From assembly GCA_020434585.1 (NCBI GenBank), contig JAGRAN010000032.1, positions 11,013-75,012 of the forward strand: DNA of 64,000 bases, read 5' to 3'. Of the stretch, positions 33,424 to 34,881 are shown piece after piece; positions within the stretch are counted from its first letter, which is position 1, and each line of letters starts with the position of its first letter. Position numbers and translations under genes: made by a program. The notes beneath the pieces were generated by a model that saw only the letters and a program-made list of their open reading frames with translations, was not told where the DNA came from and made no database searches. Origin of the DNA: Bdellovibrionales bacterium. GTDB lineage: Bacteria > Bdellovibrionota_C > UBA2361 > SZUA-149 > JAGRAN01.

Positions 33424-34881
33424 TTAAATAGCGTTTTGAATCAAATTTAACGCGAGCTGCGGCTGTAGATTAGCCTGCGCCAGAATTGACGCTGAGGCTT
33501 GCTGAAGTAAGTTCAGTTTCACGAATTTTGCGCTTTCACTCGCGATGTCTGCATCCATGATGCGAGATTGAGCTGCGGCGTAGTTCTCGACGTTGGTCGT
33601 TATAACATTTGCAGCGGTGCCTATTTTACTCTGGGTGGCGCCGATTCTGGCGACAGCCGAATTGATTCGAGTCAGGTTTTCTTTTAGTGAGGATAATGCC
33701 TGCAAAGCGCCGTATTGAGATGTTAGCGAAAACGCATCTTGGGCGAGCGACTCTACAACAACCGATTCCGTTACGTTTACGGTTGTATCCTGGATACGTA
33801 CGTTTACGTCCGCGCCGCTACCCTGAATGTTGTCGTCAACTCCATCGTTGTTCATGTCGGCCGTAACGCTTGCACTCAATTGATCTATGGTAACGTTGGT
33901 TCCGTCAAAGACGAATGCGCCCATTGAAAAGCCGCCGCCGCCAACTGTGTTGTTTGTAATAGTTCCGTTCGCTACGCCTATTCCCAGCGAGGTTATGTAA
34001 GCTAAGTTGACAATAAGGTCAGAGTCTCCGTCACTACCCGCATCCCTGGCTTGAGCGGTGACGTTGAAGTTAAGGAGCGCCCCAGAGTATATCGTATCGA
34101 ATCCTGTAGGTTCAACAACGGTGTAACCGGTTCCAGTGCTATTACCGAGAAGGAATCCGATGCTCGTTCGAATCGTGCTTCCCAAGTCTCTTGATTTTAT
34201 CGCCATAACATCGTCAATTCCGTCTAGATTAAAGTCGGCCACGATAAACTCTGGCCCAAAGTCAGCTGTAGCGACGCCGTAAGAGACGATGTTGTCAGTG
34301 TAAGTTCCAAGGCCGATTGATTCACTAACAGAGTCGATGCTGTTCTCGATGATGTCGGCTTGGATTGTGCCGTTTTCGCCGTAGCCGGCCTGCAGGTCTA
34401 TCGACGGTGCGCTGCCATCCAACAGATTGAGGCCGTTAAACTCAGTCGTATCAAGAATGCGTTGATATTCATCAAATAATCTTTGAGCCTCGAGATCTAA
34501 AGCGCCGCGCTGAGAAGGGGAGAAGATTCCATTTGCTGCCTGTTCGGCGAGTTCCGTCTGTCGAATTACGATATTCGACAACTGTCCGATCGCTCCTTCG
34601 GCGACAGCCAGCATTGACAAACCGTCGTTAAGGTTGCGCACGCCTTGGGTGAAAACTCGCCGATCTGTTTTGAGCCCACCGGCAACTGAAAGCCCAGCGG
34701 CATCGTCGGATCCGCGATTGATCCGCAGGCCACTGCTTAAGCGCTCCGAAACCGAATGCAGTTCTTTGCTTGTCTTAGACAAGCTTCGCTGCACGGTCAG
34801 CGCACTGATGTTGCTTCCAATGCGAACAGCCAAAGCAATCCTTGCTCTTTCCTGCGTCCATGCAAGAGTGCACAACAGCAC
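33424..34881 (-). CDS. Second flagellin-like protein with a non-canonical central domain (FG-GAP-like Ca-binding loops)
   Basis: The N-terminus (LSSGLRINRGSDDAAGLSVA, NDGLSMLAVAEGA) and C-terminus (RIMDADIASESAKFVKLNLLQQASASILAQANLQPQLALNLI) match flagellin. The centre has DFNLDGIDDVM, DMNNDGVDDNI and DAGSDGDSDLI. The true start is probably TTG/ATT near 34833-34839, preceded by AAGGA; the ORF track uses GTG at 34881. Confidence 0.85.
   Translation of the reverse strand: MLLCTLAWTQERARIALAVRIGSNISALTVQRSLSKTSKELHSVSERLSSGLRINRGSDDAAGLSVAGGLKTDRRVFTQGVRNLNDGLSMLAVAEGAIGQLSNIVIRQTELAEQAANGIFSPSQRGALDLEAQRLFDEYQRILDTTEFNGLNLLDGSAPSIDLQAGYGENGTIQADIIENSIDSVSESIGLGTYTDNIVSYGVATADFGPEFIVADFNLDGIDDVMAIKSRDLGSTIRTSIGFLLGNSTGTGYTVVEPTGFDTIYSGALLNFNVTAQARDAGSDGDSDLIVNLAYITSLGIGVANGTITNNTVGGGGFSMGAFVFDGTNVTIDQLSASVTADMNNDGVDDNIQGSGADVNVRIQDTTVNVTESVVVESLAQDAFSLTSQYGALQALSSLKENLTRINSAVARIGATQSKIGTAANVITTNVENYAAAQSRIMDADIASESAKFVKLNLLQQASASILAQANLQPQLALNLIQNAI

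Follow-up and report, generated by a model that had tools for sequence, protein, structure and literature searches.

The 64,000-nucleotide (nt) stretch of contig JAGRAN010000032.1 analysed here (the window), which belongs to a metagenome-assembled genome (MAG) of a Bdellovibrionales bacterium, carries on its reverse strand a solitary flagellin-like gene with an unusual centre. Does this gene encode a working filament subunit, a flagellin scaffold put to another use, or the relic of a longer paralogue? A first-pass annotation had proposed specialised filaments or, alternatively, a non-flagellar use of the scaffold. The gene at 33424..34833 encodes an intact flagellin with a non-canonical, FG-GAP-derived centre, and the evidence favours the specialised filament: the product is probably a genuine, low-abundance, specialised subunit, translationally throttled or under checkpoint control, with a three-blade FG-GAP arc on its outside.

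Flagellin identity, start codon and central domain

33424..34833, reverse strand: flagellin coding sequence, 469 amino acids (aa) and TAA stop, TTG start (Pfam, NCBIfam, the orthologue at locus L087 and the NCBI record)
34354..34833, reverse strand: N-terminal D0/D1 helices, aa 1-160
33718..34353, reverse strand: central outer domain, aa 161-372, predicted all-beta with about three FG-GAP/VCBS blades
34210..34236, reverse strand: putative Ca2+-loop motif 1, DFNLDGIDD, aa 200-208; D200, G205 and D208 invariant or near-invariant in the family
34018..34044, reverse strand: degenerate middle loop, DAGSDGDSD, aa 264-272; blade model not significant here, significant in homologue P0020
33832..33858, reverse strand: putative Ca2+-loop motif 3, DMNNDGVDD, aa 326-334; D326 invariant, N328, D330, G331 and D334 at least 90% conserved
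33427..33717, reverse strand: C-terminal D1/D0 helix, aa 373-469 (Pfam Flagellin_C, AlphaFold helix 373-468, phmmer to solved filament flagellins)

Analysis of the protein with Pfam revealed Flagellin_N (PF00669) at 116.9 bits (E 9.4e-34, cut-off 26.6) and Flagellin_C (PF00700) at 59.2 bits (E 5e-16, cut-off 23). Both pass the gathering score, as expected from the first-pass description of flagellin helices at either end of a non-canonical centre. With phmmer, aa 1-160 and 372-466 match 59 solved flagellins, with E values as low as 5e-43, and the D0/D1 coiled-coil fold can be superposed on subunits of solved filaments. The top NCBIfam matches of the 469-aa protein are likewise all flagellins, the best being PRK12802 with 190.1 bits against a cut-off of 332; no curated NCBIfam flagellin cut-off is reached, which places the protein in no curated flagellin subfamily. 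The Flagellin_N fold is common to FlgL, and TIGR02550 matches with 83.6 bits, as would suit a hook-filament junction protein (FlgL/HAP3-like) instead of a filament flagellin. This identity is extremely unlikely, and we reject it, since the match falls below the TIGR02550 cut-off of 127.2 whereas flagellin models score far higher (190 bits), and since members of the family cluster with canonical flagellins and occur in tandem arrays.

The open reading frame (ORF) 33424..34881 is present and intact, and either GTG 34881 or a TTG near 34833 had been considered as its start. The closest orthologue, at locus L087 (72% identity, also exactly 469 aa), keeps GAGCAAGGATTGCTTTG exactly and has an in-frame TAG 15 codons upstream of its TTG, with no start codon between. 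Because GAGCAAGGATTGCTTTG is shared and the stop lies upstream of it in L087, translation starts at TTG 34833. GTG 34881 is ruled out by that stop and by the 469-aa NCBI model, MCB0344273.1 ('hypothetical protein KDD66_04115 [Bdellovibrionales bacterium]', from a 94-kb MAG contig), which is identical to the product of 33424..34833.

The DxNxDG loops reported at first pass are present in the centre: two are canonical DxDxDGxxD-type loops kept family-wide, and a third is degenerate. A blade hidden Markov model (HMM) built from long-form FG-GAP flagellins, the sister forms described below, detects two significant blades in the 469-aa protein, at aa 192-245 (1e-5) and 319-353 (5e-4), with a degenerate repeat between them; the same model gives three significant blades in P0020. 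Matches of homologues of the short flagellin to Pfam FG-GAP_3 are faint or weak. A profile of the centre matches 77,453 representatives, mostly giant FG-GAP/VCBS proteins, and among the 150 best matches listed, only the short flagellins, at about 460-476 aa, match once from end to end.

The AlphaFold model of the full protein, built with 25 homologues, has a predicted local distance difference test (pLDDT) value of 81.5 and places helices at 9-129 and 373-468, with an all-beta centre between them at 144-360. Modelled alone (aa 158-374), the centre reaches a pLDDT of 86 and a predicted TM-score of 0.78, with 11 strands. No closed seven-blade ring is found in the central domain, and Foldseek comparison of the modelled centre with the PDB gave no significant whole-domain match. 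Strand counts and partial superpositions point to about three FG-GAP/VCBS blades arranged as an open arc, which two long strands at its ends may connect to D1 as a stalk. In integrin-type propellers, DxNxDG-type loops bind Ca2+, and by analogy those of the centre would be expected to do so.

Long and short forms of a flagellin family

13729..15666, forward strand: paralogue (copy 1), 645-aa flagellin with a full seven-blade FG-GAP propeller, GTG start (NCBI MCB0344257.1, 'VCBS repeat-containing protein')

The window holds a second FG-GAP flagellin, for which FG-GAP_3 passes the Pfam gathering score with 147 bits (E 2.4e-43) over seven stretches. It contains seven DxNxDGxxD motifs spaced about 50-57 aa apart, and the blade HMM also finds seven blades. 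Its GTG start at 13729, as first annotated, agrees with the NCBI model. The claim that the genome keeps two divergent flagellins of this kind is thus borne out (469 and 645 aa), while the description of both as propeller-bearing holds for copy 1 with its seven blades and not for the short copy, in which about three blades appear to form an open arc.

Of the 120 clusters (90% identity) with the best scores in a protein database search, about 115 have the architecture Flagellin_N, FG-GAP and Flagellin_C. The best 120 matches fall into two size classes, of about 450-476 aa and about 590-670 aa; the sources named among them are Bdellovibrionales, 'Deltaproteobacteria' and Pirellulales MAGs, under the NCBI label 'VCBS repeat-containing protein'. 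A scan of GTDB species representatives yielded at least 599 candidates and at least 80 loci, in which genes were called by a longest-ORF heuristic. Many Bdellovibrionota, Oligoflexia or unclassified MAGs among these loci carry several long FG-GAP flagellins each, often in tandem; single contigs hold three in L007 (76-7531), two in L011 (5099-9098) and two in L025 (1879-7072). The 63 nt upstream of both L011 copies are identical, which points to a recent duplication. Canonical flagellins of about 287 aa are found in the same MAGs as FG-GAP forms (JAUIIO01, loci L030 and L037; JBIKWN01, locus L065), and in the UBA2409 locus L022 canonical genes lie 7 kb from an FG-GAP gene. Short and long forms occur together in the window and in L005.

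A neighbour-joining tree built on the D0/D1 core, computed without bootstrap, groups 65 FG-GAP flagellins without intruders and places them beside the canonical 287-aa flagellins of Bdellovibrionota. Most short forms make up one clade nested within the long forms, with P0020 and P0027 branching apart. This suggests that the short arc arose from a seven-blade propeller by loss of about four blades. In the simplest history, a seven-blade propeller would have been acquired once and blades lost afterwards, a scheme that is indicative only because the tree has no bootstrap.

Blade loss could also be read as decay, with the gene a seven-blade relic that is poorly translated from its TTG and has little or no function. 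Three blades are left, the middle one degenerate; Pfam FG-GAP stays below threshold; the start is non-ATG; and NCBI labels the product merely as a hypothetical protein. Against this stand an intact ORF and at least 25 short-family homologues, down to 37% identity, which keep a length of 449-476 aa, the architecture and the invariant D1 residues. Across 25 members both Ca2+-loop motifs are invariant or nearly so, and the flanking stalk motifs GLGTYT and IQDT are conserved. D0/D1 is the most strongly conserved part of the protein. When comparing the window gene with its L087 orthologue, the ratio of nonsynonymous to synonymous substitution rates (dN/dS) of the N-terminal core is about 0.04, with a low dN and an unchanged total length; the centre has 59% identity and keeps its length, and dS is saturated there, which leaves its dN/dS undefined. 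The leader elements described below are conserved, as is the non-ATG start itself. We therefore reject a pseudogene at 33424..34833 on the intact frame and the length and motifs kept in homologues, and hold the decaying paralogue to be very unlikely.

Leader, promoter and genomic setting

34861..34856, reverse strand: CAUGGA, putative CsrA site 1
34844..34839, reverse strand: CAAGGA, Shine-Dalgarno sequence and putative CsrA site 2; 5-nt spacer to the TTG start at 34833..34831, identical in L087
34850..34867, reverse strand: leader hairpin 1, UCUUGC-AUGGAC-GCAGGA, GGA in the loop (minimum free energy fold)
34832..34848, reverse strand: leader hairpin 2, AGAGCAA-GGA-UUGCUUU, Shine-Dalgarno GGA in the loop and the first two TTG bases in the stem (minimum free energy fold)
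35015..35023, reverse strand: sigma-28-like -10 candidate, GTCGATTTT, 189 nt upstream of the TTG; L087 has GCCGATTTT at -187

Starts at GTG or TTG are found in nine of ten short-family genes, and over all fetched loci non-ATG starts occur in 14/34 FG-GAP flagellins compared to 4/53 canonical ones. The earlier suggestion that such starts attenuate translation thus concerns a real and conserved trait, one that fits throttled translation. The window gene also has two GGA motifs in its leader, one of them overlapping the Shine-Dalgarno sequence. At least two CAnGGA motifs within the 80 nt upstream are seen in 5/6 short FG-GAP flagellins and 17/53 canonical flagellins, compared to 0/28 long FG-GAP flagellins and 7/1060 other genes; copy 1, with a single CAAGGA 10 nt before its GTG, lacks the double motif. 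The longer pattern GCAnGGAnnGC occurs three times in the whole window, once as the flagellin Shine-Dalgarno sequence. A consensus double hairpin is common to seven short-family leaders, with compensatory changes at 4/8 pairs.

In Bacillus subtilis, CsrA represses hag through two GGA stem-loops, one over the Shine-Dalgarno sequence, and FliW antagonises it; CsrA of Bdellovibrio bacteriovorus has been found experimentally to repress the hag leader (PMC13443453). The short-family leader resembles this CsrA/FliW-type flagellin signature, and its GGA motifs are putative CsrA binding sites. Because the CsrA-type double-GGA leader is common to canonical flagellins as well, it would tie the short family to the flagellar assembly checkpoint. 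These readings of leader and promoter rest on motif statistics from 6-10 short-family loci.

Further upstream, the distal block in which the window and L087 agree best holds GTCGATTTT and GCCGATTTT, respectively. The motif [CT]CGATWWW is present within 300 nt upstream of 12/34 FG-GAP flagellins compared to 9% of other genes. A textbook sigma-28 site, TTAACTTG-N11-GCCGATAA, lies upstream of the L006 gene, and an exact GCCGATAA also precedes the long form of L005. De novo k-mer enrichment upstream of FG-GAP flagellins recovered nothing beyond a weak CGATTTT signal. Because its -35 element is poor, the candidate sigma-28-like promoter about 190 nt ahead of the TTG is suggestive only. Scans for sigma-70 promoters and terminators gave nothing above shuffles, no terminator was detected between flagellin and dus, and a search of window positions 33300-35600 against Rfam found no family. 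Within the putative 190-nt leader, a terminator-like hairpin ACTGCAGTTCGCAGT with a T-rich tail (34953-34967, reverse strand) is partly kept in L087 and is not above chance in the scan. An apparent motif shared by both window copies, TTTTGG-N5-TTGTC, was discarded, its spacing being wrong for sigma-54.

Two genes border the flagellin:
32210..33343, reverse strand: dus, tRNA dihydrouridine synthase (PF01207, 1e-70), 80 nt downstream of the flagellin; adjacency kept in L087
35165..35425, reverse strand: small gene, 86 aa, prepilin/Flp-like N-terminus (ERG/AALVDY), upstream of the flagellin; adjacent in L087, 56% identity

The flagellin had been placed between dus and a Flp-like pilin gene, and of these neighbours dus is confirmed. 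The pilin assignment goes no further than the motif: the product of 35165..35425 has no Pfam or NCBIfam match up to an E value of 5, PF04964 and the NCBIfam pilin models included, and homologous small proteins give faint prepilin matches at E of about 0.05. Pfam analysis of about 55 ORFs across the window agreed with the first-pass observation that no flagellar export or hook-associated genes lie nearby.

Does this isolation speak for another use of the scaffold? The product might be a soluble or separately polymerised adhesin, secreted by the flagellar type III system or otherwise, perhaps together with the Flp-like and DUF6502 genes, and forming no motility filament. The isolation of the gene from all flagellar genes in the window, the prepilin-like gene directly upstream and the DUF6502 and prepilin-like pair found upstream in L005, L087 and L090 are consistent with such an adhesin. 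However, the canonical flagellins of the phylum are equally isolated, and for that reason isolation is not evidence for a non-flagellar role. No recurrent flagellar families were detected by Pfam in the 94 ORFs flanking canonical flagellins of Bdellovibrionota MAGs, nor in the 144 ORFs flanking 24 long FG-GAP loci, where glycosyltransferases (4) and further FG-GAP flagellins (3) are commonest. The flanks of ten other short-family loci, covered up to ±10 kb, likewise hold no flagellar genes, and their contexts vary; the exception is L087, which shares the gene order of the window (FecCD ... flagellin-dus-pepA). Judging from these flanks, dispersed flagellin genes are a property of the lineage; B. 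bacteriovorus itself has six scattered fliC genes. The D0/D1 polymerisation core is conserved above all else, the leader carries the flagellin-type double-GGA signature, and FG-GAP flagellins stand in tandem arrays and beside canonical ones, as in multi-flagellin filaments. With isolation typical of the lineage, canonical and FG-GAP forms together in MAGs and the leader in common, a non-flagellar use is unlikely, and the specialised filament subunit remains our preferred reading.

SLT lytic transglycosylase genes adjoin the canonical 287-aa flagellins (L030, L037, L065 and others) and are the commonest neighbours there, with 9/94 flanking ORFs. Apart from DUF6502 and the synteny with L087, a tblastn search with 35 window proteins against all fetched loci revealed no conserved neighbour. 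DUF6502, which by eye looks like a helix-turn-helix regulator and has no PDB relative, recurs as a pair with a small protein of about 80-90 aa whose N-terminus is prepilin/Flp-like (G/ATMLEY, G/TAAIEY). On the reverse strand of the window the pair is found at 45206-46018 with 44794-45069, and at 51731-52546; elsewhere it occupies L005 6917-8026, L087 7912-9636 and L090 7984-9171, where it lies 1.2-2.3 kb upstream of the short FG-GAP flagellin on the same strand. Beside the window flagellin only the small gene 35165-35425 is left of this pair.

Upstream of the flagellin, an operon at 35795-40253 (reverse strand) encodes a TonB-dependent receptor, a periplasmic binding protein and an FecCD/ABC importer; the operon is syntenic in L087, with a 6-kb insertion between it and the flagellin. 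The 499-aa ORF at 30663-32162 (forward strand) runs antisense to the gene for M17 leucyl aminopeptidase (30558-32072) and can almost certainly be dismissed as a shadow ORF. Around copy 1, the regions 6562-9692 and 21256-29327 hold a GT2 gene, three GDSL/SGNH hydrolases, a Wzy_C O-antigen-ligase-like gene and a PMT_2 glycosyltransferase, and a link of these envelope and glycan genes to flagellin glycosylation is possible. Divergent from copy 1, a 664-aa ORF (11306-13300, reverse strand) has a sub-threshold TraU-like match (E 1.2e-5, 25.3 bits against 26.5). Downstream of copy 1, two adjacent ORFs of about 535 aa (16891-18501 and 18482-20083, forward strand) have no Pfam match and no relative in the fetched loci.

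A probable specialised filament subunit and its known relatives

By homology and predicted fold, the D0/D1 ends would direct export by the flagellar type III system, followed by polymerisation into the filament core. The central 212 residues would then project outward as an open arc of about three blades with two DxNxDGxDD loops, an arc that, as the tree suggests, appears to descend from the seven-blade propeller found in the sister family. Exposed on the filament surface, such an arc would most likely act as a Ca2+-stabilised interaction module, making lateral contacts between outer domains or binding glycans or other ligands. Expression would be set by the sigma-28-like promoter, the two GGA hairpin loops and the weak TTG start, in an arrangement that, as in the CsrA/FliW system of B. 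subtilis, would couple flagellin translation to assembly. Promoter, leader and TTG together lead us to predict a low-abundance, checkpoint-controlled specialised subunit. Its partners in co-assembly would be the long FG-GAP flagellin and, probably, canonical short flagellins.

Several observations weigh against this picture. Neither flagellar, chemotaxis or motor genes of any kind (Pfam) nor csrA or fliW were seen in the 64-kb window; the analysis covers this part of the MAG, and a flagellum in the source organism is assumed from its lineage. The Pfam FG-GAP match of the 469-aa protein is sub-threshold (11.8 bits against 22.1, E 0.23). The structure has been predicted from shallow alignments of only 22-25 sequences, and three blades in an open arc make an unusual and possibly unstable unit. 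The leader hairpins are not above shuffles (single-sequence z -0.2), and their consensus energy is weak (-3.3 kcal/mol). The sigma-28 match is partial, with GTCGATTTT as -10 and a poor -35, and the strict pattern TAAA-N13-17-CCGATA (consensus tested, TAAA-N15-GCCGATAA) has no match in the window.

Because a three-blade arc cannot close a propeller by itself, intermolecular pairing can be envisaged: arcs of neighbouring short subunits, or of a short and a long one, might pair into closed, Ca2+-dependent propellers and build a lectin-like outer lattice with which a predatory bacterium could recognise or hold glycans of the prey surface, its assembly limited by the CsrA/FliW checkpoint and the weak start codon. 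We regard this extension as a long shot. Bdellovibrionota are a phylum of predatory bacteria, and a Ca2+-dependent lectin-like filament surface, if true, would connect motility to prey contact. Whatever its ligand, a propeller cut to three blades and yet conserved raises the question of how an open arc is stabilised on a helical polymer. A growing view treats the outer domains of flagellins as functional modules, including proteases, stiffening lattices and surfaces for adhesion or immune recognition. FG-GAP-propeller flagellins are abundant in metagenomes, with several copies per genome in Bdellovibrionota. We know of no CsrA targets in Bdellovibrionota; from the conserved double-GGA leader and the non-ATG starts, a minor flagellin is predicted to come under CsrA/FliW control in this phylum.

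Compared to canonical flagellins (FliC/Hag, as in Pseudomonas aeruginosa type B, B. subtilis Hag and Helicobacter pylori FlaA), the window protein likewise has a variable outer domain between ND1 and CD1, and B. subtilis hag has the same two-GGA leader. Its outer part, however, is a FG-GAP/VCBS propeller fragment and not an Ig-like or D2/D3 fold, its start is TTG, and no NCBIfam flagellin cut-off is reached (190 against 332). The filaments of B. bacteriovorus also combine several flagellins whose paralogues are scattered away from the flagellar operons, as here, whereas those flagellins have about 280 aa and no outer domain. Flagellins with foreign outer domains are already known; the FG-GAP/VCBS flagellin family is widespread and essentially unstudied. 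Flagellinolysin, reportedly described by Eckhard and colleagues in 2017, carries a metallopeptidase insert in flagellin. Giant flagellins, with duplicated DE/DX regions, have been shown to assemble into filaments (Thomson et al. 2018; PMC6248924). In both, the filament surface bears a foreign or expanded domain carried by the conserved flagellin scaffold, as proposed here; the insert of the window flagellin is instead a Ca2+-loop propeller fragment, neither a metallopeptidase nor a duplicated DE/DX region.

Our literature search found no description of FG-GAP/VCBS flagellins, of their abundance in Bdellovibrionota, of the three-blade form or of the leader, except for one sentence on a 'WD40-repeats' outer-domain cluster (#55) in an AlphaFold survey of flagellin outer domains (Fields et al. 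2024, PMC11532411). This cluster is an uncharacterised propeller-type outer domain among UniProt flagellins and might correspond to the FG-GAP family. The passage concerned gives no taxa, no repeat type and no three-blade form.

Compared to seven-blade integrin-alpha/FG-GAP propellers and bacterial or fungal FG-GAP lectins (PVL, 2bwm; UmbA4, 9oee), about three blades are predicted here, with no closed ring in a single chain, and the domain is embedded in a flagellin. The nearest relatives are the seven-blade long flagellins, copy 1 included, with which the short form shares the D0/D1 clade, the repeat type and the DxNxDGxxD loops. They differ in blade number (seven against about three) and in the size of the centre (about 415 aa against about 215 aa), and the double-GGA leader and almost universal non-ATG starts set the short family apart.

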